IMG/VR virus record: IMGVR_UViG_3300021310_000004
Strand: one strand, 5' to 3'
Source: a virus
Lineage: Duplodnaviria; Heunggongvirae; Uroviricota; Caudoviricetes
Length of the DNA stretch: 64,000 nt
This document shows, in pieces, positions 1 to 41,981 of the stretch. A model generated the notes under the pieces. The model did not search any database, had not been told where the DNA came from, and saw nothing but the letters and a program-made list of their open reading frames with translations. A program made the position numbers and the translations under genes. Position 1 is the first letter of the stretch. The number at the start of each line of letters is the position of its first letter.

Positions 1-143
1 TAGATTACTATAATAATAAAAGAATTCAGGCAAAAACAAAATGGATGCCACCTGTACAATACAGGATAGCATCCATGTGTTCAACCTAGTTCATAAATAT
101 GTGTCCAGGATTCTGGGTACATATCATATGGAGCGTCTTTCTT

Positions 144-1791: not shown

Positions 1792-2313
1792 TTATTCGAT
1801 TAATACCTTCGAATTTGAATCGATCAACACATTTTTTACACTAAGCGTTGGTTGCTGATACTTAAGTTGCTCATTAGCGCTCATTTTCCGGTACTTAGCC
1901 CCGTAGATAAAGTACTTCGGATAAACATACTGACCCATTTCATCTTTTTCATTTCCTGGGATATAGATTCTTGGGATACGATTCTGGATGCTAGGTTGAT
2001 CTGCAGGGACATATCCATGCTTCATCATCACGTGTCTGATCATCCATCCGACATTTCTTCTGTACTTCGCATTAGCTCCTTCCCCGTTTGTATTTAATGG
2101 GAACTTTGCGGTATCGTACTCATCTTCTAACACCTTAACAATTGGTGTCAGTACGGGAATTCCCATGTCTGCAGCTACGGTCATTTTCACGACAGTCTCC
2201 GGATCCATTAAGAACCGTAAGATCTTTTCTGCGGCATCGTATGATTCTGTCTCATCTTTGTCTCTAATTTTAGACTTCTCAAAGAACTCTCTTATCATTC
2301 CGTCCATATCCAT
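1792..2313 (-). CDS. hypothetical protein
   Basis: ORF with AGGAGGG RBS. Confidence 0.5.
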   Translation of the reverse strand: MDMDGMIREFFEKSKIRDKDETESYDAAEKILRFLMDPETVVKMTVAADMGIPVLTPIVKVLEDEYDTAKFPLNTNGEGANAKYRRNVGWMIRHVMMKHGYVPADQPSIQNRIPRIYIPGNEKDEMGQYVYPKYFIYGAKYRKMSANEQLKYQQPTLSVKNVLIDSNSKVLIE

Positions 2314-2825
2314 ATGACTTTCCCTCCTTTATTGAACCAGCGAATTAACTAGTTCTTTATTATGCCTATACTATAACACCAGCAAATTTACTTGTCAATA
2401 GCCACTAGCAAATTCACTGGTATTTTTTTTCACCACAGCATTACTAGTGTATAGTATTTATTTATTGAAGTATAAGACATCATAAACCATAACATTGCCC
2501 TTCCCGCCTTCTTCGCCTCAAGTCCTTCCATTTGCCAACCCGCTACACGCCCTATTGGCGCCGTAATAAGGCACAAATATATCCGCCCCTAATTAATACG
2601 CACATCAATTAGAGCCTTAAATACGAGCCAAATACGCGTCTTAATACAGGAATCGCAATATAGGTCCCAATAGCACCTGCTGCCATACCGGCACTAAAAT
2701 TGTTACCATACTCTCTCGTACGAGCTATGGAATCATAATATTGGTTCTTTCATCCGGTTCTACTCAACGTACGTAATTCGTTACGAAGGATCCGGACGTT
2801 TATCACGGTCGAACATATTCGGACC

Positions 2826-3190
2826 GATCTATTGGGACTTATATTGCGATCCAAATGTATTGGGACCAATATTGCGACCCGGCACCGGTTTCTTGTCGTC
2901 TGGATATCGGTTCGAATATATCCAGTCATATAATATGGTACGAATTTTTGGCGACTAATAGGTCGTGCCGGGATTAATGTGCCTTTATATTGGTACGAAC
3001 AAGATGCAACAGGTGTTTTGGAACGAATACATGGATCCACTATTGGGACTTATATTGCGATGCCGGCAGCAGGTTCGTTTATTTAGTTCTACAATACGGT
3101 TCCCTGTATCCCGATTCCGACATATTCGTGCCAATTATGGGCGCGTATTGCGGCTCCTATCCGTTTGGGGCCAATATTTTCGTGCCGATA
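2826..3190. repeat. iteron-like direct/inverted repeats (TATTGGGAC(TT/CA)ATATTGCGA x3 plus degenerate copies; CTGGATAT..ATATCCAG inverted repeat) in a GC-richer noncoding region
   Basis: repeats read directly at 2828, 2856, 3040, 3134, 3165; region 2440-3300 lacks credible ORFs and differs in composition. Confidence 0.55.
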
Positions 3191-3360
3191 GGACGCGCCG
3201 GGCGGAATCTCGAAGGAGAGAAAAGAGAGGCAGGGTAATATCTATACTGTTATGTACTATGATAAATAAATAATATTAGCAACTGTTTGCATTTATTGCC
3301 GAACTAGTGTACGATTAGGCCATGATATAAATGCTTATTGCAGCAGGTTTGGAGGACGTT

Positions 3361-3594
3361 ATGACACTTTTGCGAGAAGAACGGGTAAAAGAACTGAGAA
3401 AAGCTTATCCTGCCGGCGCGGAAGTTCGTCTTAAAAAGATGAACGATACGCAGGCGCCGCCAATTGGTACCATTGGTACTGTATACCATGTTGATGATGC
3501 CGGTACCGTTCATATCCACTGGGACAATGGCAGCTCCCTTGGCGTTGTCCCTGGCATTGATGAGATTGAACTCGTCCCAAAAGAAATGGGGTGA
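3361..3594 (+). CDS. DUF4314 domain protein
   Basis: GGAGGA RBS; conserved DUF4314-like motif ...DTQAPPIGTIGTV..VDDAGT..WDNGSSL. Confidence 0.6.
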   Translation: MTLLREERVKELRKAYPAGAEVRLKKMNDTQAPPIGTIGTVYHVDDAGTVHIHWDNGSSLGVVPGIDEIELVPKEMG

Positions 3595-3598
3595 TAAT

Positions 3599-4537
3599 AT
3601 GCTATCAAATCGTATTCGTATTGATATCCCGGACCTACCAGAATATGCATATGCATACTTTGATCAGCTCGAATTAAGTGATAAGACCGTTCACGCGTAT
3701 GCCGGTGATATTCGTATGTTTTTTGAGTTCCTACTGGTACATAAAAAACTAGACTCCTATCTCGAGGTAACACCAGCTGTTCTAAATACCTTGCGGCCAT
3801 ATGATGTGCTCCAGTATTTAAAGTTCTTACGAGACGGAACCTTAAAAGACGGTCGCATTATAAATGAATCCGACAGTTGTCGCGCCAGACGGCTCTCTGC
3901 TCTTCGAAACTTTATGCAGCATCTTATGCTGGAAGGTATTATGGACCAGAACGTGGCACGTCTTGTGGATCCACCAAAGAACGTTCACAGGAAGAAGAAA
4001 ATCGTATCCGACGATAAGATCCAGGCGATGCTTGATAATATTGATTCCGGAGTTGGTACCGAGCGGCAACAGGCCCTGCGGGAACGGTCGAAGCTTCGGG
4101 ACCGGGCAATTGTGCTCACCTTTGTTATGACGGGCATTACTATGTCAGAGCTTGTAAATCTTGATGTTCAAGATATTGATTATAAAAATAAGACCATCCA
4201 AGTCGTACGAAAAAACGGAACTATTGATGTACTACCAGTTCCGGATGATGTTATTCATGCGATTGATGATTACGTGAAAAACGAGCGATTCTGGGAGGAC
4301 GGCAACTTCGCACTATTTATCGCGAGCCGATTGAAAAACCATCATAGATTGTCCGTCAATGGGGTCAATGATGTATTAAAGCGATTTAGTACGGATGATG
4401 GGACCGGCAAGCATTTAACAGCCGCCGATTTGCGACGAACATATGGTGCCAATTTGCTTACTAAGACAAACGATCCTTGGGAAGTCGCAAAGAAGTTGGG
4501 CCATAAAGATGTAAAAACGGTAGAAAACTATTATTAG
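3599..4537 (+). CDS. tyrosine site-specific recombinase (XerD/integrase family)
   Basis: C-terminal catalytic region ...LRRTYGANLL...LGHKDVKTVENYY (R..H..R..Y signature); N-terminal SAM-like core-binding domain. Confidence 0.8.
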   Translation: MLSNRIRIDIPDLPEYAYAYFDQLELSDKTVHAYAGDIRMFFEFLLVHKKLDSYLEVTPAVLNTLRPYDVLQYLKFLRDGTLKDGRIINESDSCRARRLSALRNFMQHLMLEGIMDQNVARLVDPPKNVHRKKKIVSDDKIQAMLDNIDSGVGTERQQALRERSKLRDRAIVLTFVMTGITMSELVNLDVQDIDYKNKTIQVVRKNGTIDVLPVPDDVIHAIDDYVKNERFWEDGNFALFIASRLKNHHRLSVNGVNDVLKRFSTDDGTGKHLTAADLRRTYGANLLTKTNDPWEVAKKLGHKDVKTVENYY

Positions 4538-4550
4538 AGGAGAATTTAAA

Positions 4551-4985
4551 ATGGCCGTTATTATAAATGAAGAATCTTTTTCGTATGATTATGATGAGTT
4601 ATTAGAAATAGCTCATGATGCAAAACGTGATGGATTTGATTCTGTTTGGTGCTCAAGGAATATATTCCATCCAATTCCTAGTTCAATCCAGGGATTGTAT
4701 TACTTTGCATTTGATAATGTAATAACGGAAGATCCTGTGGCCATGTTCGAACGTTTCGAAAAGGGTTTACAAGCTCTTATGCATCCTGATGAATGGTGCG
4801 ATGGGGCCATGCTTATTGATATGGATGATATATTTTGTATATCGGAACATACCAGAAACCTATATTTAGATGATTCAAAAGAAAAAGAATATGAACAAGA
4901 GAAAACTGATTGCATTAATTTGTATAAAAAATACAATATTGATGACGTAATCGCTGAAATGGAAATGTGGAATTCCGTTCTTTAG
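4551..4985 (+). CDS. hypothetical acidic protein
   Basis: ORF with AGAGGAG RBS, co-oriented with integrase. Confidence 0.45.
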   Translation: MAVIINEESFSYDYDELLEIAHDAKRDGFDSVWCSRNIFHPIPSSIQGLYYFAFDNVITEDPVAMFERFEKGLQALMHPDEWCDGAMLIDMDDIFCISEHTRNLYLDDSKEKEYEQEKTDCINLYKKYNIDDVIAEMEMWNSVL

Positions 4986-5002
4986 TGGCACAAAAATAAG
5001 AG

Positions 5003-5030
5003 CTCCTATTGGGGCTCTTATTCTTTATGT
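5003..5030. terminator. bidirectional terminator hairpin (AAGAGCTCCtattGGGGCTCTT)
   Basis: palindrome between convergent genes. Confidence 0.5.
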
Positions 5031-6681: not shown

Positions 6682-7122
6682 TTAATAAGGGCAGTCGACC
6701 GAAACTTGGAACCTACTCTCTAAATCTCGATTAAAGCAACAAAGAATTGCTCGAACCAAAGGTAAATCAAGTATGATATCCGGGATGTAATCAACACCTC
6801 GGTCTCCGATCGATGCCAATGCAATCATGCGTTTAAAAATCTCCAGATGGCCAAAATCATCAATATAGTCGTTTATGATTGGATCATATGCCGTTTCGAA
6901 TTTTCGTTCCGCACGAATCAATCGATGATATAGAGAATCCCACCATTCTATTGGGACATATGCCAGACGATTCATAATCACCGTTTCAACATCATATGTA
7001 GATACAAATCCATCTGCACTACAAATACGCCCCGGACGAGATAACAATGCTTCGTTCGGTAAAACTTTGCTTCTGTATTTGTTGCGTAATTGCAGTTCCT
7101 TAAAGAATTTCTCATCTGGCAT
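6682..7122 (-). CDS. hypothetical protein
   Basis: ORF. Confidence 0.45.
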   Translation of the reverse strand: MPDEKFFKELQLRNKYRSKVLPNEALLSRPGRICSADGFVSTYDVETVIMNRLAYVPIEWWDSLYHRLIRAERKFETAYDPIINDYIDDFGHLEIFKRMIALASIGDRGVDYIPDIILDLPLVRAILCCFNRDLESRFQVSVDCPY

Positions 7123-7127
7123 ATTAT

Positions 7128-7535
7128 TTACTCTCCAAAATCCGTTCCGGCGATTTCCTTCGCCCTGATTTTATACGCTTCAATTGCCTCGTAATCCGTG
7201 TATTCTTCGCCACAAAAACAATGTTCCAATGGGAACCTTATGAGGTCTTCTAATGTCTTGATCTCGTCGCAATATTTCTTCGTTTGAGCTTCGCACTCTA
7301 GCTCATATGTCTTAATTGCCTCGTCTTTTGTTCTAAAAATACAATCTTCCGTGACATAAGCTGTTCCATGATTATCAATTGAATGAACAACGTACACTGG
7401 CTCCTTGTTCTGAGGATCATCTGGTGGGACGTAGTAATCGACAATCTTTGCCTTTTCTACCGGAATCCAAGTCGTTCTAATATAAACAACGTCACCAATT
7501 TTGTACTTTCTATTCGTTACCGCTTTATCGCTCAT
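7128..7535 (-). CDS. hypothetical protein
   Basis: ORF, translationally coupled to downstream gene. Confidence 0.45.
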   Translation of the reverse strand: MSDKAVTNRKYKIGDVVYIRTTWIPVEKAKIVDYYVPPDDPQNKEPVYVVHSIDNHGTAYVTEDCIFRTKDEAIKTYELECEAQTKKYCDEIKTLEDLIRFPLEHCFCGEEYTDYEAIEAYKIRAKEIAGTDFGE

Positions 7536-8407
7536 TACTGTGCTCCGTATAGGATTCTTGCTAACTCGGAATTCTTATCCAGGATCAATGTCTTATTGTC
7601 GCCGGCCATAGCCTTCATAGCGTCCAAGCTTCTTTGATAATTGTAAAAGTCCGCTTTGGATTCATCGTTATAAGCATCAGACAAGATTCGCATATACTCT
7701 GCTTCACCCTCTGCAACTAACTTCGCCGCATCACTCTTTGCAGCTGCCTTTGTAATAGAAACCTGCTTATCCGTTTCGTTGCGGATCTTCTTTGCTTCTG
7801 CCTCACCCTTTGCGGCGTAGCTTGCGGCAATATTATTTCGTTCTGAAATCATACGCTCGTATACAGCAGCCTTATTATCGTCCGGCAGATCTAACGCCTT
7901 GATTTCAGCAGACTTAATCTCAATACCATACTGATCAATATCAGAATTTGCCTCGTCTGTGATCATCTTTGTAAGAGTATCGCCTCTTGCTGCAATGATT
8001 TCATCCTGTGTCATTGAAGAAATCGTATTTTTGGTTGCGTTATAGACGTTCGCCTCAATACGCTCTTCTGCTCTTGCTTTTACACCAACAAGTGTACGAT
8101 AATAAGCCACCGGATCCTTAACAGTCCAAATGACAACGTCATCCGCAATCATAGACTTCTTATCGGATGTGATTACGTCACTGGTCGGAATATCGTACAA
8201 ATTGTCACCGGTATAAATCTTAGCTACGCTCTCAATAAATGGCGTCTTAAAATGCATGCCGGTATCTTCTACCGTGTATTTTGCCTTTCCAAGATGAAGA
8301 ACAATAGCAGTTTCATTTGGCTTTACTGTGTAGGCGGATGCTGTAAACAAGATGAGTCCAGCAAAAAACGCTACACCAAAAAGAATCAAGGATAATACCT
8401 TTTTCAT
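7535..8407 (-). CDS. SPFH/band-7 domain membrane protein, HflC-like
   Basis: N-terminal TM helix; band-7 core (ETAIVLHLGKA... PVAYY); C-terminal coiled coil. Confidence 0.6.
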   Translation of the reverse strand: MKKVLSLILFGVAFFAGLILFTASAYTVKPNETAIVLHLGKAKYTVEDTGMHFKTPFIESVAKIYTGDNLYDIPTSDVITSDKKSMIADDVVIWTVKDPVAYYRTLVGVKARAEERIEANVYNATKNTISSMTQDEIIAARGDTLTKMITDEANSDIDQYGIEIKSAEIKALDLPDDNKAAVYERMISERNNIAASYAAKGEAEAKKIRNETDKQVSITKAAAKSDAAKLVAEGEAEYMRILSDAYNDESKADFYNYQRSLDAMKAMAGDNKTLILDKNSELARILYGAQ

Positions 8408-8419
8408 AACTTCCTCCTT

Positions 8420-9343
8420 TTACTGTGCAAATGTATCAAGTGGTAACATCGTCTGAGTTGACCCGTCAGTAACAATTACCTTTAGGCCTGGCAAAATGCT
8501 TTCCATTGTCTCGTAAAACATTCTCTTCTTCGTAATGGCCGGATACTTCTGGTACTCTTCATAGGTTTGATTAAAACGAGCAACCTGACCTTCGGCCTCA
8601 GCAATACGCGCCTGCTTCTTACCCTCTGCCTTCTGTCTAATTTCGTCAGCTTTTGCTTCAGCTGCAGGAATCTGTTCATTCTGGTACTGTAATGCATTGT
8701 TCTTTGCAGTATCGGCGCCCTGCTTTGCAGTTTCGACCGCTTTAAATGCAGCCTTGATTTCGTCTGTAGGTGGCTCAGAGTCCTGAATCGTAATATTCAC
8801 TACTGAAAGACCAATGTCTCGCTGCTTTAAGGACTTGTTAATTGCCTCCTTAATATCCGCCTGAATCTTGTTCTTACCGGTGGTCATCGCTTCATCCACA
8901 GTATAGTTGGATACAACCGTACGAATATCCGCCAACGCGGTGTTTACCATGATTTCTTCCGGTTCCTTCGAGTTATAAAGGTACGCAACTGGATCCGTAA
9001 TGCGATACTCCAGGTAAAAATCGATATTGAGCAAGTTAAAATCGCTCGTAATCATAATGCCGTTATCGGCATCTTCTACATTTTGGCCATCGTCAGATAT
9101 TTCGTATCCAAGTCCGGTACCATGTGTAGTAATATCAACCTTCTTCACCTTTTGCCATGGAGCTTTCACATGAAGACCGGCAGTATCTACTCGAAGGACT
9201 TCACCAAACTGCGATACGACAGCATTCTGTGTCTCTTTTACTCCATAAAAAGTGCGGAAAAGACAGATAATGGCGAATAACCCTAATAAGCCAAAGATAA
9301 TCATCTTTCCAATTGTGCTTGGTTCAATTTCATAATCATTCAT
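8420..9343 (-). CDS. SPFH/band-7 domain membrane protein, HflK-like
   Basis: TM helix then band-7 domain (VVSQFGEV..., LEYRITDPVAYLY), coiled-coil tail; paired with HflC-like gene. Confidence 0.6.
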   Translation of the reverse strand: MNDYEIEPSTIGKMIIFGLLGLFAIICLFRTFYGVKETQNAVVSQFGEVLRVDTAGLHVKAPWQKVKKVDITTHGTGLGYEISDDGQNVEDADNGIMITSDFNLLNIDFYLEYRITDPVAYLYNSKEPEEIMVNTALADIRTVVSNYTVDEAMTTGKNKIQADIKEAINKSLKQRDIGLSVVNITIQDSEPPTDEIKAAFKAVETAKQGADTAKNNALQYQNEQIPAAEAKADEIRQKAEGKKQARIAEAEGQVARFNQTYEEYQKYPAITKKRMFYETMESILPGLKVIVTDGSTQTMLPLDTFAQ

Positions 9344-9800: not shown

Positions 9801-10556
9801 TTATTCAACATCGGACATATAAATCACATTCTCTTCCATATCATCTAACCGTAAACAGATAGCTCCGTACGTATCCTTATCTCGATTCGGATTTACGCTA
9901 AACGCACAACCACCATCGATAAGCACGACGTTTGCTTCTTTATAGGCTTCGATTCCGTCATCCATCATTTCTACTACGCGCTGCACCGGTACGTGACCAA
10001 TGATAAACGTAGTATCCGGGATGTTATAATCCGATATTGGCTTGTAAGTATCGAAACGAAATGGAGAGCACCATACGACACTAAATGACTTAATCGGTGT
10101 ACGTTCCTCATATGGAACATCAATCATATCTTCCTTGTAATACGAATGACTGAGGCAATACTTTTTGTTATTTACGTTAACCAGCGTCAAAACTTTTCTT
10201 GTTCGCAGCCATTGAAGCAAATCAACTCGTTCCGCAATTGGTAACTTAGAATATGCTTCAAATGTAATGTCTCCGCCGTTCATATCGAACCACAAATCCG
10301 CATCCGGTCCTGGTAAATCGTCCACGGATCCATCTTTCGCAACAGAATTTAGCATCATGTGTTCATGGTTCCCAAGCAAAAGATCCATATTCGATGCTGA
10401 TTTAATCATTTGCAGTAGTTCGATCCCATGCGGACCACGATCAATAGCATCGCCTAAGACGTACATATAATCTTTTTCCGAAAAGTCGATTCTTTTTAGA
10501 AGTTCCTTAAATATGTCAATCTGTCCATGTAAATCAGAAACAACATATGTAGCCAT
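9801..10556 (-). CDS. calcineurin-like metallophosphoesterase (PP-lambda/PrpE-like Ser/Thr phosphatase)
   Basis: DLHG..., GDAIDRG, GNHE motifs. Confidence 0.7.
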   Translation of the reverse strand: MATYVVSDLHGQIDIFKELLKRIDFSEKDYMYVLGDAIDRGPHGIELLQMIKSASNMDLLLGNHEHMMLNSVAKDGSVDDLPGPDADLWFDMNGGDITFEAYSKLPIAERVDLLQWLRTRKVLTLVNVNNKKYCLSHSYYKEDMIDVPYEERTPIKSFSVVWCSPFRFDTYKPISDYNIPDTTFIIGHVPVQRVVEMMDDGIEAYKEANVVLIDGGCAFSVNPNRDKDTYGAICLRLDDMEENVIYMSDVE

Positions 10557-10610: not shown

Positions 10611-10673
10611 TAAATATGATTTGTGTATTCGAAAACAAAAAAATAGCAACGTTTATTTACGCTGCTAAGTAAC

Positions 10674-10745
10674 AGAGGCAACAGGACTCGAACCTGTAAC
10701 GTTGAGGATCAAAGCCTCATGTTCTACCAATTGAACTATACCGCA
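10674..10745 (-). tRNA. tRNA-Gln(TTG)-like (two acceptor-stem mismatches)
   Basis: T-arm ACAGGTTCGAGTCCTGT; anticodon loop CTTTGAT. Confidence 0.45.
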
Positions 10746-10749
10746 TTAA

Positions 10750-10838
10750 CGCTCGCTACAGGACTCGAACCTGTGGACCAAATTTCTTTGATCAACTGAT
10801 TAGCAATCAGCCGCATTCACCAACTCTGCCAAACGAGC
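10750..10838 (-). tRNA. tRNA-Ser(GCT), type II
   Basis: cloverleaf hand-folded; loop TTGCTAA; long variable arm. Confidence 0.5.
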
Positions 10839-10842
10839 ATAG

Positions 10843-10916
10843 CAGGGGTAGAACGATTCGAACGCTCATAGAATCTTTCGATTCACGGTTTTGGAGACCG
10901 CTGTTTTACCATTAAA
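10843..10916 (-). tRNA. tRNA with CCA anticodon (Trp) and unusually extended variable region
   Basis: acceptor AGGGGTG/TACCCCT, loop CTCCAAA, 16-nt hairpin variable region. Confidence 0.4.
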
Positions 10917-10932
10917 CTACACCCCTATATAG

Positions 10933-11012
10933 AGATCCAGGTGGGATTTGAACCCACAACAATGTCATCCCAGATTTGCAGTCTGGAGCCTTACCAGTTT
11001 GGCTACTGGATC
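10933..11012 (-). tRNA. tRNA-Cys(GCA)
   Basis: perfect acceptor GATCCAG/CTGGATC; loop CTGCAAA. Confidence 0.5.
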
Positions 11013-11017
11013 ATAAA

Positions 11018-11099
11018 CGCCGTACACAGGATTCGAACCTGCAACCCATTACTGGGCCATGATTTTCAAGACCACTTCCTCACCACCCGGACATACGGC
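11018..11099 (-). tRNA. tRNA-Ser(TGA), type II
   Basis: loop CTTGAAA; variable hairpin CCCAGTAATGGG. Confidence 0.5.
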
Positions 11100-11103
11100 A
11101 TAT

Positions 11104-11250
11104 GAAATGAAACGCTGTGTCTGGGACTTGATTCTCAGCTACCGCTTCGGTCGGTGCTTCTACTTCGTAGAGGTGTCCACTGGACACCCGCACCCCAGAA
11201 GCCATCGCTGGCACCGGCTTTCGAGGTCGGTGTGTTTACCATATTCCACC
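11104..11250 (-). ncRNA. GC-rich structured spacer (stacked perfect hairpins GGTGTCCagtGGACACC, CTTCTACttcgTAGAAG) between tRNAs
   Basis: hairpins read directly; no ORF (11059..11397 ORF rejected). Confidence 0.3.
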
Positions 11251-11264
11251 AACACAGCTTATAG

Positions 11265-11346
11265 CGCCACCGATAGGATTCGAACCTATATACCCGTTAA
11301 GGCTACTGCGTTCCAAGCAGCTGCTCTACCATTGAGCGACGATGGC
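11265..11346 (-). tRNA. tRNA-Ser(GGA)-like, type II
   Basis: loop TTGGAAC, T-arm ATAGGTTCGAATCCTAT. Confidence 0.4.
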
Positions 11347-11577
11347 ATTAAAAAAGCACTCATTCAATTCATGGAGAAAAGAACAAGTGCCTTCTAGCTA
11401 AAATATATACTTAGTGCCGGAATACCGGTCATAATGTACCATTTTTGTTCCCATGAATCGTAACTATTGAATTTGCACCACAAATAGACCAACGACAAGA
11501 CTGTGATTGGCTACTAATGCTCTGTGAAATTCGTCTAATTACTAAGTTCTTCATGGTTTTTATTCCTTTCTACATTA

Positions 11578-11955
11578 TTATCTAAATTTGTAATATCGAT
11601 TTTCTTTCGTAAACATAGAAATATCTCCAGATGACATTCCGCTTTGTTCTTCTATTGATATCACAGGATGCCATACAGGGAATGGTTTTCCATGTATTAC
11701 ATGTGGCTGAAATCTGCAACGATATATTTTACCATCTACAATCCACTTCAATCCTCTAAATTCGAACAAAAGTCCATTAGCAGCGCTTCCAACGCAACAA
11801 AAATCTCCAGGACGAATAAAATCAGAAACTATAGACATGTTTATTCCATCTTTATTTTGCACTGCCTTTTCGATGATACTGTATAACAACTCTATTTCAG
11901 CGCTGCTATATTCAAATGGTTCAATCATATTTATGTTCCTTTTTACAAGAATCAT
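11578..11955 (-). CDS. hypothetical protein
   Basis: ORF between tRNA blocks. Confidence 0.35.
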   Translation of the reverse strand: MILVKRNINMIEPFEYSSAEIELLYSIIEKAVQNKDGINMSIVSDFIRPGDFCCVGSAANGLLFEFRGLKWIVDGKIYRCRFQPHVIHGKPFPVWHPVISIEEQSGMSSGDISMFTKENRYYKFR

Positions 11956-12060
11956 TCCTTTCTCATTCTCTCCGCAAAGAGCGAGCTTTCATCAAGCCGA
12001 TAATACGACGCATCGCTTACCGTGCCGCTATGGCTATCCGAAGATACCGACGGGATATAG

Positions 12061-12135
12061 TTGCGGATATGGGAGTCGAACCCACTATTTCAAGTTTATG
12101 AGGCTCGTGTGATAAATCCGTTTCACTCATCCGCA
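12061..12135 (-). tRNA. tRNA-Met(CAT) family (Met/fMet/Ile2 not distinguishable)
   Basis: perfect acceptor TGCGGAT/ATCCGCA; loop CTCATAA. Confidence 0.55.
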
Positions 12136-12136
12136 A

Positions 12137-12209
<73 letters not shown>

Positions 12210-12300
12210 ATATTGGGGCGGTTGGCGAGACCGTTTTCTGCTCTTGGCTTCCCAAAGCCTCAAAGTGTTTTCCCTGGGAACATACACATAACCCACGTAA

Positions 12301-12374
12301 TGATTCCAGGGAGACTCGAACTCCCATTTCCGACTTGAAAGGCCGGTGAACTAGACCAGTTATTCGATGGAACC
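12301..12374 (-). tRNA. tRNA-Glu(TTC)
   Basis: loop CTTTCAA. Confidence 0.6.
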
Positions 12375-12459
12375 ATATTAGCGGAATCCTGGGTTTCTAC
12401 CAGTGTTTACCTCGCTCCGAATATCGGGGCAAGGGCTTGCGTTAGGCAAATCCCGCCAG

Positions 12460-12532
12460 AACAGGTAACGGGGATCGAACCCGTGTATCCGACTTGGCAA
12501 GCCGGTGCTTTAACCAACTAAGCTACACCTGC
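12460..12532 (-). tRNA. tRNA-Gly(GCC)
   Basis: loop TTGCCAA. Confidence 0.6.
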
Positions 12533-12666
12533 ATATCCGGTGCAAATTGATATCATGGCCGGGATATCAATCCATAGGTACTTCTAACCGGACGTACCCA
12601 AACCCCTGTCTTGGCCTTCGACTTGACTCACAAGAGTCTGACATTGCCATAGGAATTGCAACGTTA

Positions 12667-12752
12667 GGGTGAAGGAGGAGACTTGAACTCCCACGGGATT
12701 TCTCCCGGCGGATCCACAATCCGCTGCGTCTACCAATTTCGCCACCGACACC
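12667..12752 (-). tRNA. type II tRNA-like with Leu-like body but GTG (His) anticodon reading; acceptor has 2 mismatches
   Basis: GTGGCGAAATTGGTAGACGC D-arm, loop TTGTGGA, long variable arm. Confidence 0.3.
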
Positions 12753-12892
12753 ATAGGTGCAGCAACGGTTCCCGCCGGGAAGCCTTTTGACTTCGGAGCC
12801 ACCGCTACACCATAAGCATAATGCCAACGTATTATATACATCCGCGTTGGTTCGGATTCAGCCCATAGCCACACAAAGGATAGCCGGGTAGT

Positions 12893-12964
12893 TGGAATGA
12901 CAGGGTTTGAACCTGCGACCTCTTGATCCCAAATCAAGCGTTCTCCCAAACTGAACTACATTCC
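12893..12964 (-). tRNA. tRNA-Pro(TGG)
   Basis: loop TTTGGGA; clean cloverleaf. Confidence 0.65.
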
Positions 12965-13137
12965 AATATGGTCTATAGGATAACTACTGGCGTCCTGCCC
13001 AGCATTTAACTCATTTCATATCCTGCGTTCTCTGTCAAAGACCCGTGACAGGCTTTCTTTAGCGGATTAGCTCGCTCCTACCACCTAGACATCGCCCTTT
13101 CAGACTTTGCCATTTCGCGAATGATGGATTCGGATCA

Positions 13138-13208
13138 TGCCCCGCGATGGAATCGAACCACCGACTTCTTCTTGTAAGGGAGACGTATTCCCATTATACT
13201 AGCGGGAC
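13138..13208 (-). tRNA. tRNA-Val(TAC)
   Basis: loop CTTACAA. Confidence 0.55.
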
Positions 13209-13242
13209 AAATAGTTATTTTGAATGGAATTTCTTTCCAGCG

Positions 13243-13315
13243 TGCCTGCACTGGGGCTTGAACCCAGGATCTTCGGATTAAGAGTCCGCTGCTCTCCCAT
13301 CTGAGCTACACAGGC
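13243..13315 (-). tRNA. tRNA-Lys(CTT)
   Basis: loop CTCTTAA. Confidence 0.6.
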
Positions 13316-13333
13316 GTATTTCATATTCACTTA

Positions 13334-13370
13334 TAATACGTATCATTGCGATGCGTTTTGTGACAAAATG
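13334..13370 (-). promoter_or_regulatory. class A bipartite motif upstream of tRNA block
   Basis: TAATACGTATCATTG-N8-TTTTGTGACAAAA. Confidence 0.5.
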
Positions 13371-13440
13371 CGCCTGACAGGATTCGAACCTGCGATATAC
13401 CGGTTAAAAGCCGGTTGCCATACCACTTGGCTACAGACGC
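13369..13440 (-). tRNA. tRNA-Lys(TTT)
   Basis: loop CTTTTAA. Confidence 0.6.
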
Positions 13441-13555
13441 CCATTTACTTTGGTTTTCGATACTTTCGTTTCTGTTTTCGCTTCATTGTTATACCTCTAT
13501 TCTTTTTAGTACATGTTCAACAATAGCTGAACGGCTTATAAGTTCCCAATATGTT

Positions 13556-13810
13556 CTATCCATTCGACTCGATTTCAAACTCAATCATTGATAATAGTTT
13601 TTTTAAAGCAGCCGATTCATCACTGGTAGACAACCGAATCCTTTGCCGGCCACGTTCATCATTGATATAAACATCATACATATTACTATCTGGATTCAAA
13701 CAGTATCCCATAACAAACCCGGCCTTACTATTTTCTTCCAGTATTACATCCCACATACCAATTTCGGCCTTCTTCTCGTTAATTATGTTCAAATATTCTT
13801 CCTTGTTCAT
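13556..13810 (-). CDS. hypothetical protein
   Basis: ORF inside tRNA region with plausible start context. Confidence 0.4.
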   Translation of the reverse strand: MNKEEYLNIINEKKAEIGMWDVILEENSKAGFVMGYCLNPDSNMYDVYINDERGRQRIRLSTSDESAALKKLLSMIEFEIESNG

Positions 13811-13863
13811 TTATAAATCCTCTATCCATATACAACCAGGATATATTTATACCTTTTGAGGAA

Positions 13864-13937
13864 TACCCCTTCCGAGATTCGAACTCGGAAAAACTTGATT
13901 TTGAATCAAGCGTGTATGCCAGTTCCACCAAAGGGGC
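13864..13937 (-). tRNA. tRNA with CAA (Leu) anticodon but short (type I) variable loop
   Basis: loop TTCAAAA; variable TTTTT; discriminator A. Confidence 0.4.
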
Positions 13938-13941
13938 CTAG

Positions 13942-14022
13942 TACAGGTGAAGGGATTCGAACCCTCAAGCTCTAGGCCACCTGATCCTAAGTCAGGCCTC
14001 TGTTCCATTCGAGTACACCTGC
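13942..14022 (-). tRNA. tRNA-Leu(TAG), type II
   Basis: loop CTTAGGA; long variable arm. Confidence 0.5.
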
Positions 14023-14027
14023 ATAAG

Positions 14028-14112
14028 TGCTCCCGATGGGACTTGAACCCATACGTCATTTAAGACCTCGGTTTTTAAGACCGATGCGTGCTGCCAATTA
14101 CGCCACGAGAGC
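14028..14112 (-). tRNA. tRNA-Leu(TAA), type II
   Basis: loop CTTAAAA. Confidence 0.5.
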
Positions 14113-14199
14113 ATGTGCTATTCAGTTTTAAGTTCATAAGTCGGAGTCGTAATCGTAACAACATCGTTTTTTAATTCCTTTCTTTTAATATCTATAAAG

Positions 14200-14282
14200 A
14201 GCTCCGTGTAGGATTCGAACCTACGTGAGGTTTCCCTATCTGCTTACAAGGCAGGTGCAATCGTCCACTATGCGAACGGAGC
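14200..14282 (-). tRNA. tRNA-like, anticodon reading TGT with 14-nt variable region (atypical)
   Basis: acceptor GCTCCGT/ACGGAGC, loop CTTGTAA. Confidence 0.35.
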
Positions 14283-14349
14283 ATATAATAGATTAGAACT
14301 GCGATGTTCCGATTGGATACGGTTAGTCCACAGACTAATCTATTTTAAG

Positions 14350-14421
14350 AGCACTATACGGGATTCGAACCCGTGTCCCCGGCTTGGAAGGCCAGAATCT
14401 TGACCACTAGACGAATAGTGC
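14350..14421 (-). tRNA. tRNA-Gly(TCC)
   Basis: loop CTTCCAA. Confidence 0.6.
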
Positions 14422-14533
14422 ATATGTGAAAGTCTTTTGCGGTGGCAATCAACGCCAAACCTATTATCCATTCTGGATCGTGGCTCCTGCACCATTGTTG
14501 CTTTGTTCCTATCGGGACCCGCGACTTTCACAG

Positions 14534-14606
14534 TGGAGTATACGGGGATCGAACCCGCCATCTTCTGGTTGCAAGCCAGACGGCACCCCATTGCGCCTTA
14601 TACCCC
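14534..14606 (-). tRNA. tRNA-Ala(TGC)
   Basis: loop CTTGCAA. Confidence 0.6.
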
Positions 14607-14609
14607 ATA

Positions 14610-14690
14610 TATTACGGTGTACTGTAGCCGGATTCGAACCGGCGCATCACTACCACTGTAGCTGCCTTAACCGCTTGGCTATACAGCGCC
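14610..14690 (-). tRNA. tRNA-like element, anticodon undetermined
   Basis: T-arm GCCGGTTCGAATCCGGC, D-arm AGCCAAGCGGTTAAGGC; anticodon arm non-canonical. Confidence 0.3.
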
Positions 14691-14798
14691 TGTAACCTTC
14701 TATAATCTCTTAGGCACCGTGTCATTAGGGCTAATTAACTATAGGACCAGCAAGACGTACTAAAATCTGACTAAAAATTAGTACCGCTTGGAATTAAG

Positions 14799-14872
14799 CG
14801 ACTACAGTGGGACTCGAACCCACGATCTCCTGATAGACAGTCAGGCGGATTAACCAACTCTCCTATGCAGCC
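14799..14872 (-). tRNA. tRNA-Asp(GTC)
   Basis: loop CTGTCTA. Confidence 0.6.
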
Positions 14873-14954
14873 ATATCATCCGGAGCCTTTCTTACTCCGG
14901 ATATATTATTTTTGTTCGTAGATAAAGAAGTGCCTGTTTTCTTATATCCACTAA

Positions 14955-15027
14955 TCACCTCTGTGGGATTCGAACCCGCGTTTCGAGATTGAGAATCTCG
15001 TATCCTAGGCCTCTAGACGAAGAGGTG
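14955..15027 (-). tRNA. tRNA-Glu(CTC)
   Basis: Glu-type D-arm TCGTCTAGAGGCCTAGGA; loop TTCTCAA. Confidence 0.55.
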
Positions 15028-15047
15028 ATTCATAATGTTCACAGAAT

Positions 15048-15150
15048 CAATGCAGATGGATTCGAACCACCGCTCTATCCGCCCTGTCCGGGCGTTGTTT
15101 TGCCTTTGGAGTATGTCGGCTCCTACAAACTATACACCGTATGTGAACAT
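15048..15150 (-). tRNA. long tRNA-like element (about 100 nt), anticodon undetermined
   Basis: T-arm GGTGGTTCGAATCCATC; no canonical fold found by hand. Confidence 0.25.
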
Positions 15151-15248
15151 TATCTTCTGCCGTATTGATTACACCTCTTGTCCTCAGAGGAATCGACAGG
15201 ACTTGTACCCAACATACTTGGACTTTGTACATCGAATACAAGAATTCA

Positions 15249-15321
15249 GTGTCCCCGGATGGAATCGGACCACCGCGTTCCGGGCTTCAACCGGATGCTC
15301 TGCCAACTGAGCTACAAGGAC
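15249..15321 (-). tRNA. tRNA-Phe(GAA)
   Basis: stem TCCGG/CCGGA loop TTGAAGC. Confidence 0.55.
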
Positions 15322-15431
15322 TTGTTTGAAGCATTAAAGTCGCTTCAATTCACTGCGTATTTTATTAAGGTAACATTTGCTCTAACCCTTCGCGCCAGAT
15401 AAAACATATGTTAAACCCGGTACGAGTCCCA

Positions 15432-15515
15432 AGCCAGAGAGTCGAACTCTGCGAGCACAAGTGCGGAGGATTTACAGTCCACCCCGTCTCCGTAACGGTT
15501 TAGCAAGGGTTACTT
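15432..15515 (-). tRNA. type II tRNA-like, GTA (Tyr) anticodon reading; acceptor imperfect
   Basis: loop CTGTAAA; T-arm CAGAGTTCGACTCTCTG. Confidence 0.3.
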
Positions 15516-15602
15516 ATATTGGTTGCTATAATAATAATCAACCATACTATCACCTTCCTTTTGTATTTGTTTTGATAAAGGGTGCCTGTTCCTTCATCGT
15601 AG

Positions 15603-15675
15603 CGGGTCCAACAGGCTTCGAACCTGTGACCTTCCGGTTAACGGCCGGACGCTCTACCAACTGAGCTATGGATCC
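15603..15675 (-). tRNA. tRNA-Asn(GTT)
   Basis: loop CCGTTAA. Confidence 0.6.
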
Positions 15676-34012: not shown

Positions 34013-34156
34013 CTTTGTTTTTATTCTCCTTTCTGCGATGGTAATAGTTTTGTTACGGATTAAATATGAGCAAGGTAAATGGCACAAAAAAAAAGAGGCC
34101 CGAAGGCCTCAATTCATGAATGGAGAACTTAACGTGCGGTCTGCACGCTAAGCAAG

Positions 34157-34229
34157 ACGCAGAGGTAGGAATCGAACCTACGACCTCCAGGTTATGAGCC
34201 TGGCGAGCTGCCGCTGCTCCACTCTGCAA
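34157..34229 (-). tRNA. tRNA-Met(CAT) family
   Basis: loop CTCATAA. Confidence 0.55.
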
Positions 34230-34323
34230 CATTGGCACCAAATCATTGGTACCAACATGAGAATGCCCGCAAATTCAATAACATTGCGGATTTGGCTAGA
34301 AGTATTTGCACTTTTATTGTGCA

Positions 34324-34395
34324 GTGACTCTTACGGGAATCGAACCCATGTTACCGCCGTGAAAGGACGATGTCTTAACCGCTTGACCAAAGAGC
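34324..34395 (-). tRNA. tRNA-like, Glu-type (TTC reading), anticodon stem imperfect
   Basis: loop region CTTTCAC; D-arm TGGTCAAGCGGTTAAGACA. Confidence 0.35.
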
Positions 34396-34535
34396 CAGAA
34401 GGCGGTACCACTGCCGCGTTAATACCGTAGCAGAGGTACCAATTTTGTTAAAAGTAAGTAGTGCATTATACCTATTTAGTCATTATTGCAATGCGTTGGG
34501 GGAGGTGAGAAAATTCGCACCGCAACAACAACGAA

Positions 34536-34621
34536 CGCAGTATCCAGGATTCGAACCTGGAAACCGATTGCTCGGATGGCGGATTTCGAATCCGCTGCTG
34601 TACCAATTGAGCCAATACTGC
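34536..34621 (-). tRNA. tRNA-Ser(CGA), type II
   Basis: perfect acceptor GCAGTAT/ATACTGC; loop TTCGAAA; long variable arm. Confidence 0.55.
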
Positions 34622-34805
34622 ATATGCAATCCATAAAAACACCCTTCACGTCCTAATACTTACGACGATCAATCGAATTCCGGATTGCGATACCGAGTAG
34701 CACCATTTGTTCGAACCGCAGGTGATATCGGTATCAATTTTTCTGAAAGTATTACGCAAAGCGGTTCTCGGAATAACGCACTTCGCATCTTTCTATTAGG
34801 ATGAA

Positions 34806-34900
34806 AACGCCGGCCATAGGACTTGAACCTATATCAGGGACCATATAGTGGTTTGATCTCCAAGAGCCAGCATAAGCAATAGACTTTCGCCTTACCACAC
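34806..34900 (-). ncRNA. tRNA-like fragment / structured element (T-arm ATAGGTTCAAGTCCTAT, no matching acceptor)
   Basis: T-loop consensus without complete cloverleaf. Confidence 0.2.
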
Positions 34901-35420
34901 TACAACTATCTTTATTCGGCCACCACTCGCAAAGGCTGAACCACACCAACGTCTCGGCATAGCTTCTTTACGGCCATCCGTAAACGGACAGCTACCATGG
35001 ACGGGAATCACATTACCCGCAACGTTCACCAGACATTCAGCTATACTGTAAAGATCTGTTATTATCCCTTGAATATCATATCTTCGGAAACTGACATATG
35101 GCTACTTGCTCTTATCCTCCGTGTTATAGGCTTGTTGCCAAACCATCAAATCAAACGGACTTGTTTTGGTTTTCCCTACTGTTTGCACGATGACCAGTCG
35201 CCGCATATAGGGTTCTTCTCTTCTCGAGCGTCTATTGCGTCCGCCACTAAGGACAAAGCTTTAAGTAAAGTTGTATCGCAGCACTGCAAACCTCTTTTCC
35301 GTTTTACCGGATTCGCGAATATTTGTTACCAAATACCACACTCCTAAACGATCAACGTAATCCGTAGTTCGTTCGAAGACTAAGGTCTGCATCCATGCAC
35401 AGAGTCAGTGTCATACACAT

Positions 35421-35508
35421 GGTTATTGCTAGTGGAATTATTAGGATTCGAACCTAGATGCTAAACATCCTTGTTTTGCACCACCCACCAATAGAGCGAT
35501 AATCCCAT
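35421..35508 (-). ncRNA. tRNA-like element with 9-bp/4-nt-loop hairpin in place of anticodon arm
   Basis: acceptor GGGATTA/TAATTCC, T-arm TTCGAATCC, internal TGCAAAACAaggaTGTTTAGCA. Confidence 0.3.
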
Positions 35509-35584
35509 ATGACTTTTGGTAAAGCAGATGTCGAACTGCTAAGGTAATTATGAAAAAAGAAACACGCATCAAACTGGATGCATA

Positions 35585-35617
35585 TATAAATATGATTCGA
35601 ATTTTTGGAAACTAAAA
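35585..35617 (-). promoter_or_regulatory. class B extended motif (TTTAGTTTCCAAAA-N9-CATATTTATA minus-sense)
   Basis: same architecture at 29645, 36746, 58346, 59776. Confidence 0.45.
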
Positions 35618-35618
35618 A

Positions 35619-36698
35619 CTAATCTTCTTCTACTTCGATTCCATGATCAGAGAGCTTCTTTTTCAGCTTATTAATTTCCTCCTGAAGCTTTCGATTCTCA
35701 ATACGAAGCTCATTGTTCTTGATTGTCTTTTCATCAAGAAGATCCTTCGCATTTGGCTTATCGTCCTTAAATACTTCTTCGTACTTCTGTTCGAACGAAG
35801 AAATACGCTTCTCAGAAACACCACTAGCTTCAAGCAGCAGCACAACCGTATTCTTATCCAGATCCTCATTCACGCTCTCACCAAGGCACTCACGTTCAGC
35901 AATATACTCACTAAGAGTTTCCTGGATATCTAACAACGTATCGTCATTGTCATCCTCAGTGGAAGGACCGGCCACAATCTGTTCAAAAGCTGTACGCTTC
36001 TGATCCGATGTATATCGACCCTCAACTCCGAGCCCATTTACCCAGAATTCTGTATGCGGTTCCTTTGCATTCTTCGTGTAGCACAAGATGCTATGAATAT
36101 CTGCGCTTCTATCATTGAATGCCGGGAATAAGAATCCAGTGTTTACGGCTCCAACAACCCAGTCGCGTTCTCTCGCACCAATATTATCCTTATCGGTTCT
36201 GTAACTAAGGCCAGGCTTAGATAAATCGACCGGACAAATCGCACACAAGATATGATCGTATACGACCTCGGATTCATCCAGTGCTAAATTATCGGTCGTC
36301 TTAGTTGGGACATCATATACGTCATGGAAAAGTACAATCAAATAATTGCCGACGTAATCAAAGGTCTCAATCACATGATCGTAAAACGCATCTAAAACAG
36401 CGTCGTCGCGAAGCCTAGACTCTCTCAAACTCATAAGAATCTTATGTTCCTCACCATTCAGCTCAGCCTCGGTTGTATACTCCAGGTTCATCAAGTTGTT
36501 GTTAATCTTTCCGGATAAGCACTTGTTCGCAATCTCAAGGAACTTAAAGAATTCCTCATCCTCCAGATTCAACATTGTGTTTCCAAACGTAGTAACCTTT
36601 TCTTTGCCGGCGTTAACATAGCAGCCACACACACGATCAATACTGCAGCTTTCCTTTTTTAACCGGCGCTTCAATTCCAGCACTTCTTTGTGATTCAT
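35619..36698 (-). CDS. DUF4317 family protein
   Basis: N-terminal MNHKEVLELKRRLKKESCSIDRVCGCYVN resembles DUF4317 N-termini; AGAAAGGAA RBS. Confidence 0.5.
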   Translation of the reverse strand: MNHKEVLELKRRLKKESCSIDRVCGCYVNAGKEKVTTFGNTMLNLEDEEFFKFLEIANKCLSGKINNNLMNLEYTTEAELNGEEHKILMSLRESRLRDDAVLDAFYDHVIETFDYVGNYLIVLFHDVYDVPTKTTDNLALDESEVVYDHILCAICPVDLSKPGLSYRTDKDNIGARERDWVVGAVNTGFLFPAFNDRSADIHSILCYTKNAKEPHTEFWVNGLGVEGRYTSDQKRTAFEQIVAGPSTEDDNDDTLLDIQETLSEYIAERECLGESVNEDLDKNTVVLLLEASGVSEKRISSFEQKYEEVFKDDKPNAKDLLDEKTIKNNELRIENRKLQEEINKLKKKLSDHGIEVEED

Positions 36699-36788
36699 AG
36701 AAATTCCTTTCTGCAATAAAAGTCCGGCTTGCTTGCCGGCATTAATAAATATGCTAATGACTTTCGGAAACTAAAAGTTTCCAAAGAG

Positions 36789-36860
36789 CTGGGCATACTG
36801 GATTCGAACCAGTGAATGCGGGAATCAAAATCCCGTGCCTTACCGCTTGGCGAATGCCCA
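36789..36860 (-). tRNA. tRNA-Gln(TTG)
   Basis: acceptor TGGGCAT/ATGCCCA; loop TTTTGAT; Gln-type D-arm. Confidence 0.65.
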
Positions 36861-36923
36861 ATACCGACTTTTGATAAGGCAGATGTCGAACTGCCTCATG
36901 TATATATTCATGAAAGGAGAAAG

Positions 36924-36996
36924 AGCTTACGATCAGACTCGAACTGACGACCTACTGATTACGAATCAGTTGCGCTACCAACTGCGCCACGTAAGC
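36924..36996 (-). tRNA. tRNA-Thr(CGT)
   Basis: loop TTCGTAA. Confidence 0.6.
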
Positions 36997-41314: not shown

Positions 41315-41343
41315 TGATACCTCCTATTATATAATGGATCCAC

Positions 41344-41417
41344 GGGGACTCGAACCCACGACCCTACCGGTTATGAGCCGGTTGCTCGACCAATTGAGCT
41401 TTGGATCCATATGGCCA
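41344..41417 (-). tRNA. tRNA (CAT anticodon)
   Basis: perfect acceptor GGATCCA/TGGATCC; loop CTCATAA. Confidence 0.55.
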
Positions 41418-41452
41418 AGGGAACGTATCCTTCTTGACCTAATCTTATTAAG

Positions 41453-41690
41453 GCATGTTCGGCATAAAAGCTGCACATGCCTATATGATATCCGGCCGGG
41501 ATTGCACCGGCACCCTTGGAGAAAAGTGTACTGAGTCGTCCAACAATTGCATTGTCAACTGCACTCAACTTTATACGACGGATATCGCACCAATGTCTCC
41601 GGACTTCGTATAGTCCCACCAGTGGATCCACTTTACATACGGTAGATGGATCAGACGCTCTCGTCATAGCAGAGATTTACGCTCCGCTAG
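41453..41690 (-). ncRNA. conserved structured block A, copy 1 (about 235 nt); second copy at 44305-44527
   Basis: about 85% identical copies with shared core CTATATGATATCCGNCCGGGATTGCACCGGCACCCTTGGAGAAAAGTGTACT. Confidence 0.4.
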
Positions 41691-41981
41691 AGAAATGAAT
41701 GTGCCAGGAATCGAACCTGGATCCGAAACGGCGAAGCCGCTTGTACTCCCATGAGTGTCACATCCAATGTATTTAATAAATGTGATCTATGAGCCACTCA
41801 GTAGCTCCAAGAGCCAAGATACTCGGAATCCCCAATAACAAGTACACCTTCGTAAAAAGGACAAGAGGTAATCCAAGAAAGAGTCCAACCATGATGAATA
41901 CAATGTAGAGTTCTATATAGAATTCGATATACTTCTCCATAATCGTCCTTCCTAATAGGATAAATAGTTATATCTCCAAAG

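Follow-up and report, generated by a model that had tools for sequence, protein, structure and literature searches.

Replication origins of the iteron type, such as lambda ori, P1 oriR, the ori of Staphylococcus aureus pathogenicity islands (SaPI ori) and lactococcal phage ori, are noncoding stretches in which several exact repeats of about 20 bp stand among degenerate copies, with AT-rich flanks and a small operator-controlled neighbouring gene. In a second familiar arrangement, the site of a tyrosine recombinase lies upstream of the recombinase gene, as in loxP/cre, difSL/xerS, crs/rsd and IRS/tnpI. We compare these two classes, and centromere arrays, with a phage locus. To our knowledge, almost no cis sites of these kinds (origins, centromeres or resolution sites) have been mapped in the large phages and phage-plasmids of gut and rumen Firmicutes. 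The locus lies in a stretch of 64,000 nucleotides (the window) from the Caudoviricetes record IMGVR_UViG_3300021310_000004 of IMG/VR, which resembles part of a very large phage or phage-plasmid. Here, a gap of 1,047 nt (2314-3360) separates a 173-aa orphan gene on the minus strand from a plus-strand operon for a DUF4314 protein and a tyrosine recombinase, and within the gap lies an element at 2451-3276 with all the features just listed for iteron origins. We conclude that it is a cis-acting DNA element and not a gene, and that it is probably not a structured RNA. Its sequence points most probably to a DNA site at which proteins bind, of an ordinary origin, resolution or partition type, and not to a classical phage integration site. 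No described family accommodates the element, and each of its parts is familiar: iterons, AT-rich ends and a recombinase as neighbour.

The main finding, missed in an earlier note made from this DNA, is that 2451-3276 (826 bp) forms one end-to-end imperfect palindrome, with arms of about 410-430 nt and a centre near 2875-2900. Comparison of the left arm with the reverse complement of the right arm gave z = 7.3-8.7 against shuffles (71% identity over aligned columns), with a direct-orientation control at z of about 0 and four control regions at -0.9 to 2.3. When the whole window was scanned for palindromes, the locus was the unique maximum, with a score of 38 where the median was 13, the 99th percentile 21 and the next-best score 22. 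The palindrome closes on terminal AT-rich inverted repeats of 34 nt that are 74% complementary, the left at 2451-2484 and the right at 3243-3276. It is also periodic in its A/T and G/C content, at 13.25 nt for the whole element and the left arm and at 13.5 nt for the right arm, and 0, 0 and 1 of 300 shuffles, respectively, reach this level. The element is composed of a degenerate unit of about 13 bp, one half of it A/T-rich ('TATT') and the other G/C-rich ('GNGAC / GTGCC'), that runs in opposite directions on the two arms. A miniature inverted-repeat transposable element or other mobile element with terminal inverted repeats was considered and rejected: the element occurs as a single copy in 64 kb, its flanks (CTAGTGT and TAGCAAC) show no duplication, and its gene context is the same in two lineages.

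Superimposed on this unit is the 20-mer TATTGGGACNNATATTGCGA (that is, TATTGGGAC-NN-ATATTGCGA), which occurs four times exactly in the element and nowhere else in the 64 kb, where 0.07 occurrences would be expected; none of 100 shuffles reached four. The copies on the plus strand are A1 (2830-2849), A2 (2858-2877, 28 nt after A1) and A3 (3041-3060), and the inverted copy A' (TATTGGGACCTATATTGCGA) lies on the minus strand at 2653-2672. Each consists of two direct half-sites, TATTGNGAY, 12 nt apart. The repeat family obeys the same dyad as the arms. A' mirrors A3 within a 25-nt inverted repeat (92% complementary to 3040-3064), while A1, A2 and a degenerate plus-strand copy at 2807-2828 (CGGTCGAACATATTCGGACCGAT) mirror degenerate inverted copies at 2906-2950, part of a minus-strand group (2900-2950) that stands across the centre from A1 and A2 at the apex of the arm alignment. 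The identity between A1 and A3 extends beyond the motif, the 22-mer at 3040-3061 being the same as that at 2829-2850. Further degenerate copies on the plus strand (ACATATTCGTGCC, AATTATGGGCGCG, GTATTGCGGC, CCAATATTTTCGTGCC) occupy 3117-3189, and degenerate relatives are enriched about threefold overall.

These results bear on several claims of the earlier note. It had counted three close copies plus degenerate ones, and both the repeats and their degenerate relatives hold, with the number of exact copies raised to four. A small inverted repeat that it had listed, CTGGATAT-N10-ATATCCAG, is indeed present at 2900-2925; another, GGTCGAACATATTCGGACC, was found at about 2807-2825 but is not kept in relatives. 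The described enrichment in GC proved only modest, since the element has a GC content of 0.41-0.485 (about 0.44) against 0.414 for the window; the flanks have 0.33-0.355 in the AT-rich promoter zone to the left and 0.38 to the right.

Exact-protein look-ups recovered more than 20 contigs identical across the region and two more lineages, L016 and L052 (the latter also represented by the identical L053 and L054), which are 90-93% identical to the window and to each other. Third codon positions of the recombinase diverge by 15%, compared with 5.3% in 2456-2950 and 8.6% in 3026-3200 of the element. Divergence reaches 32-36% in two hypervariable patches, 2951-3025 (68% identity to L016) and the purine-rich 3201-3245 (64% identity to L016). 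Because the element diverges less than these codon positions, it is under purifying selection and therefore functional. The best-conserved block, in the left outer arm (2456-2690), has about 8 variable positions across the three lineages, and this nearly invariant stretch of 235 nt contains a hypervariable spot of 3 nt (2523-2525) with a different allele in each lineage (TCC, CAT or TAC). Copies A', A2 and A3 are invariant in all three, and A1 carries a single G>A change in L016 only. Since the 20-mers are invariant and the copies that face A1 and A2 across the dyad are degenerate, it is the sequence itself, in blocks, that is conserved and not the pairing. With repeats far beyond chance and evolution slower than at synonymous sites, the general reading holds: the region is noncoding and functional, acts in cis and carries iteron-like repeats.

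The gap also lacks a credible gene, as had been claimed. The longest open reading frames (ORFs) in 2314-3360 encode 96-102 aa, overlap one another on both strands and have no Pfam match, and in a relative of 90% identity they are interrupted by indels at 3001, 3205 and 3232. Among the close lineages, neither a small conserved ORF nor a 3-nt substitution pattern that would betray hidden coding was detected.

A more distant comparison is provided by a different phage contig (L051), on which a 202-aa homologue of the 173-aa protein (57% identity) lies among tail-type genes. Directly upstream of it, an ORF-free gap of about 900 nt holds a palindrome of about 750 bp (6859-7605), with global palindromy of z = 5.1-6.1, arms 66% alike and terminal AT-rich inverted repeats at 6859-6892 and 7572-7605 (34 nt, 82% complementary). 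This palindrome has its own tandem repeats of about 32 nt and a periodicity of 15.5 nt, and neither a tRNA nor an Rfam match was found in it. At the DNA level only the promoter-proximal 280 nt or so can be aligned between the window and L051 (E 5.6e-5); tblastn found no protein-level similarity between the window element and the analogous L051 region, and the other flanking genes of the two loci are all unrelated. From the shared architecture, we infer that the element bodies of the window and L051 are homologous. No recombinase and no DUF4314 gene occurs within 6.8 kb upstream or 1.5 kb downstream of the L051 palindrome. Because L051 keeps the palindrome and the 173-aa homologue without them, the palindrome appears to travel with the 173-aa gene, the sole neighbour to do so, and the plus-strand operon looks lineage-specific. 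The earlier note had looked to relatives in which the recombinase was retained and the repeats absent; what was found is partly the reverse, the element being kept in L051 without the recombinase. Directly before the L051 palindrome lies a terminator (6823-6845), which belongs to an operon of tail genes that includes genes for TatA- and TatC-like proteins.

The reading that we prefer, at a probability of roughly 0.3, is that the element, as a partner of the 173-aa gene, offers sequence-specific proteins a platform on the DNA and acts as an origin-like maintenance site. A sequence-specific protein would bind the exact 20-mers, and weaker cooperative binding to the periodic degenerate sites would allow it to coat both arms and build a symmetric higher-order nucleoprotein complex. 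The element and the divergently transcribed 173-aa gene would form a two-part module, with the 173-aa protein as the candidate specificity protein and the Xer-like recombinase operon as a later neighbour. The iterons and AT-rich ends could, with low confidence, serve replication or maintenance of the phage or phage-plasmid. The anatomy of the element, its surplus of repeats, its purifying selection and its occurrence with the 173-aa gene in two lineages are shown by the data; protein binding, the identity of the binding protein and the biological process are what we infer here. An origin is supported by a local minimum of GC skew at the centre of the element and by the AT-rich ends at 2451-2484 and 3243-3276. 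As in iteron origins, the repeat sequence and the neighbouring protein differ together between lineages.

Several observations weigh against this origin-like reading. No DnaA box with at most one mismatch occurs in 2300-3400, and boxes with up to two mismatches are sparser there than in the window on average. Over the 64 kb, cumulative GC skew declines monotonically, with only a local V at the element; minus-strand genes lie on both sides of it, unlike at a bidirectional origin in a Firmicutes-type replicon, and no replication genes adjoin it. No DNA-binding or initiator fold can be recognised in the 173-aa protein, which also has no family match; its structure model (mean predicted local distance difference test score, pLDDT, 67) found no Foldseek or PDB match, and the protein matched none of the PADLOC defence-system models. 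The association of element and 173-aa gene is seen in two independent lineages only, and the element bodies do not align to L051 outside the 280 nt or so mentioned above; an nhmmer profile of the three close lineages gave no significant hit in L051. The periodicity power of 3.7 is the window maximum, yet another region gives 3.5. The iteron origin put forward in the earlier note is kept as a reading, without the DnaA boxes, recognisable initiator and switch in skew or gene orientation that such origins have; the palindromy over 0.8 kb and the 13-bp periodicity are likewise atypical of them.

A bolder version of this reading seems to us unlikely. In that version, the locus would represent an undescribed two-part phage module, in which a self-complementary noncoding element of about 0.75-0.83 kb with a periodicity of 13-15 nt is joined to an orphan protein of 170-200 aa and its palindromic form is kept beyond alignable sequence. 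It would then be a new class of cis-element (for example an origin or centromere of a new kind, or a fold-back single-strand element) and not a variant of att, dif or iteron sites. Related loci were sought in IMG/VR with the 20-mer, the recombinase, the 173-aa protein and an alignment of its family, and none was found; a scan of species genomes with the 173-aa family gave nothing beyond chance.

The plus-strand operon has to be considered before the rival explanations are weighed. As described in the earlier note, 3361-4985 is the only plus-strand coding block until 17.7 kb, and hence the sole plus-strand operon of the first 17 kb. It encodes a 77-aa DUF4314 protein (3361-3594, family match 7.4e-29), a 312-aa tyrosine recombinase (3599-4537) and, as its final gene, a 144-aa orphan (4551-4985) with a poor structure model, and it is followed by a terminator at 4995-5022. 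The recombinase comprises only the Phage_int_SAM_1 and Phage_integrase domains (the SAM-like core-binding and the catalytic parts), with no N-terminal arm-type DNA-binding domain. Its best NCBIfam matches are XerS, XerA, XerD and XerC; because all fall below the curated equivalog cut-offs, we call it Xer-like and not XerS or XerD proper. Apart from self-matches, its nearest homologues (35% identity) are chromosomal genes that adjoin lexA in Lachnospiraceae. Following the recombinase homologues did not lead to related loci: the next-best are these lexA-adjacent genes, and two 'unverified phage' records look the same. Homologues of the DUF4314 protein (55-68% identity) occur in varied phage contexts with no adjoining recombinase. 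The element and the DUF4314 and recombinase genes are found together in all three close lineages, while the 144-aa gene is absent from the L052 lineage.

The annotation 'attP next to integrase' is tempting here, and a lambda-type attP, with arm-type and core sites for integration into a host chromosome, was one proposal of the earlier note. The element does resemble lambda attP in carrying multiple repeats in both orientations beside a tyrosine-recombinase gene, and some contigs join this genome to bacterial genes. However, the Xer-like enzyme lacks an arm-binding domain, and all contigs spanning the element carry it whole, with no split attL and attR; the bacterial junction lies at window position 127, beside an IS3-family insertion sequence (IS) and 2.3 kb away. 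Nor was a host core found: the 20-mer, run against 185,579 species genomes, gave 3 hits, a chance number, none with flanking similarity, although the host may lie outside the collection. With the L051 element lacking a recombinase as well, an attP is scarcely credible and already largely refuted. A multimer-resolution region is, in our view, only slightly less likely than the origin-like site that we prefer. Here the recombinase, the DUF4314 protein or both would bind the 20-mers, using them as recognition or accessory sites, pair two copies, resolve the dimers of an extrachromosomal replicon and autoregulate the operon. As in loxP/Cre of P1, difSL/XerS, crs/Rsd of pSDL2, IRS/TnpI of Tn4430 and cer/psi, the element lies upstream (by 85-900 bp) of an Xer-type recombinase gene, its motifs are both direct and inverted, and motif-like sequences overlap the operon promoter. 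The 20-mers and the operon co-occur in the three close lineages, and a ParM-like partition gene elsewhere in the window points to a plasmid-like lifestyle, in which dimers would have to be resolved. The TATTGC half-site family also reaches as far as the -35 hexamer and the 5' leader of the operon, which counts against the origin-like reading. What speaks against resolution is the similar palindrome of L051 with no recombinase nearby, and the make-up of the site itself. The half-sites are direct and not inverted, and no canonical core, in which inverted arms of about 11-13 bp would enclose a spacer of 6-8 bp, stands out: the element's best dyads (2587-2614 and 2898-2927) each carry 2 mismatches, and the 64 kb hold 63 comparable sites. 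With its 0.8 kb the element exceeds known resolution sites in size by a factor of 5-25, its best-conserved block is at the end far from the recombinase, no rearranged variant occurs among the more than 20 contigs, and the pairing of DUF4314 with a recombinase is not seen elsewhere. The dif-like resolution site of the earlier note stands as a candidate, stripped of its expected core of inverted repeat copies.

The remaining alternatives turn on the palindrome and its periodicity. One is that the element acts as a long fold-back hairpin of RNA (or single-stranded DNA), transcribed from a weak promoter at 2427-2455, whose arms would pair as an imperfect duplex of about 400 bp. As a whole the element does fold far better than its shuffles, with z = -5.7 and -6.8 on the two strands (L051, -4.5 and -3.3), palindromy persists in two lineages that can no longer be aligned, the promoter-like site faces into the element, and the genome also encodes the large RNA ROOL. 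Like ROOL (RF03087) and GOLLD, the element is long, ORF-free, richer in GC than neighbouring intergenic DNA and carried by a tRNA-rich phage that encodes ROOL. It differs from them in matching no family and in having neither local structured domains nor covariation. Pieces of 150 nt, including those of the 2456-2690 block, fold no better than shuffles (z +0.9 to -1.4), so the signal of the whole element is arm-to-arm complementarity only. Changed pairs are broken as often as kept: substitutions in L016 break 34 of 55 (plus strand) and 26 of 47 (minus strand), and the consensus of three lineages, with a covariation term of -1.4 kcal/mol, contains 4 or 0 double-sided changes, a comparison of low power among such close lineages. 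Of the arm mismatches, 60-66% are transversions, and the G·U-compatible types show no bias between strands; arm similarity within a lineage is not above that across lineages. No Rfam family reached its gathering score: the window element gave nothing better than an E of about 5, and a wider L051 stretch gave a lowest E of 0.22 to 1.3, outside or at the edge of the palindrome and with bit scores far below gathering. No terminator was found after the element. After the tests of pair conservation, G·U bias and local folding, a giant-hairpin RNA was dropped as the leading idea, and we consider it improbable. Somewhat more improbable still is a centromere-like or packaging-recognition array, as in parC, tubC, sopC or pac, in which a filament-forming adaptor would coat the repeats of about 13 bp. 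Short-period degenerate arrays (10-20 bp) able to carry a protein filament are indeed known from R1 parC, pSK41 parC, tubC of TubZRC and F sopC; the element has such arrays on both arms, half-sites spaced by 12 bp inside each 20-mer, and a ParM-like gene in the same window. That gene is 49 kb away, however, no partition, adaptor or terminase gene adjoins the element, and its two mirrored arms set it apart from centromere arrays. All five of five fragmentary assemblies break inside the element (ends at 2301, 2516/2529, 2522/2526, 2665 and 2850/3040), and longer contigs pass straight through it. Three of the break coordinates are the edges of repeats of 20-25 nt, and the 2516-2529 breaks, from two samples, coincide with the variable spot at 2523-2525. 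Contig ends were set aside as ambiguous evidence for recombination, given that the identical 22-mers at A1 and A3 collapse a k=21 graph and that strains are mixed; the breaks are suggestive but fully explained by assembly behaviour, that is, by 22-nt repeats at low k and strain variation at 2523-2525. A last possibility is that the element has no function and represents an inverted duplication, now decayed, of a minisatellite of 12-13 nt. This would suit the degenerate periodic make-up, the chance match of an unrelated 12-nt minisatellite to the motif and the fact that the arms do not co-evolve among close lineages. It sits badly with an element more conserved than synonymous sites, with 20-mers invariant across lineages and with an architecture retained in a distant lineage, and we hold it very improbable.

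Whether the origin-like platform that we prefer or the recombinase site is correct, the tempting annotation as an attP would be corrected. The recombinase-site reading, if true, would reveal an unusually large and symmetric resolution region. Should the pairing of palindrome and 173-aa gene prove true, it would provide a new maintenance module and a function for an orphan protein family. The locus is a compact and testable candidate: it combines four exact sites of 20 bp with a candidate partner protein and with an Xer-like recombinase next to them.

Searches for the element elsewhere returned little. DNA similarity to deposited phages and plasmids was not found, and a metagenome scan with the 20-mer gave 24 hits, all attributable to chance. 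Three of the metagenome hits (L030 1600-1790, L036 and L044) correspond to a 12-nt minisatellite, (ACCAATATTGCG)n, on unrelated contigs of non-prokaryotic appearance, which calls for caution in motif searches.

The intergenic DNA around the element carries an elaborate set of putative control signals. The 173-aa gene (1792-2313, minus strand) is preceded by a consensus sigma-70-type promoter, TTGACA-17-TATAGT, with 11 of 12 matches (2370-2398, minus strand). Around it are three palindromic operator-like sites of 18 bp, ACYAGCAAATTNACTKGT, at 2336-2353, 2378-2395 and 2404-2421 (five matches on two strands against 0.55 expected), and the ends of the operator palindrome are kept in L016 and L052. 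This operator-flanked promoter resembles a repressor-controlled early promoter. The weak promoter-like site that reads into the element on the plus strand (2427-2455) has ACTAGTGTA in common with a site at 3303, and its -10 hexamer is weakened (T>C) in L016 and L052. A promoter-like site for the DUF4314-recombinase operon, TTGCAT-17-TACGAT, lies at 3288-3316 on the plus strand in a stretch that is 96.5% conserved.

The half-site family extends into this last region. The motif GCAGCAGGT occurs three times around the element, at 2675-2683 (as the reverse complement), 3066-3074 and 3340-3348, and seven more times in the other 63 kb. Its last copy ends 2 nt before the GGAGG ribosome-binding site of the DUF4314 gene and 13 nt before the ATG. 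The leader also contains TATTGCAGCAGGTT (3336-3349, plus strand), a shortened version of the end of A3 plus GCAGCAGGTT (3053-3075), and a second TTATTGC, at 3293, abuts the -35 hexamer of the operon. In total, 6 of the 19 plus-strand TATTGC sites in the window fall within 2842-3336. A copy of CTATTGGGG in the loop of the operon terminator, at 5006, was dismissed as coincidental, as it is not conserved in L052.

The majority of the window proteins have no family assignment, and some features beyond the locus deserve mention. At the left end, window positions 1-126 are the inside of the right end of the IS3-family element (L001 5059-6528; L003 4113-5582). To the left of it, two samples differ in their bacterial housekeeping genes (PTS/CorA/LiaF in one, ThiC/SCP2 in the other), and a third sample (L002 1-6528) has no IS and carries methylase, GmrSD and HicAB genes instead. 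The junction represents either a chimeric assembly through the IS or an IS-mediated joining to a host chromosome.

Just downstream of the locus, two neighbouring genes for Band_7/SPFH-domain proteins and one for a NinI-like Ser/Thr phosphatase lie on the minus strand (7535-9343 and 9801-10556). An actin-like partition protein of the ParM/Alp type is encoded at 52026-53105 on the minus strand (phrog_691, 1.7e-35), with two small genes upstream (53120-53904), and suggests a plasmid-like maintenance stage. The window also encodes 35 tRNA genes, a transfer-messenger RNA (tmRNA) and a ROOL RNA, all on the minus strand. The tRNA genes form three arrays (10673-15675, 34156-36996 and 41335-44738), and a full-length ROOL RNA (RF03087, 251 bits, E 5e-56) lies among them at 34861-35444, adjoined by a DUF4317 gene (35619-36716). 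The tmRNA gene (46404-46754), carried here by a phage-like genome, specifies the tag peptide ARSNVRPMAVAA. Two of the tRNA predictions are odd: ARAGORN called a 4-base anticodon (gtgt) in the one at 42837-42929, and a match of 124 nt at 42304-42427 may hold an intron.

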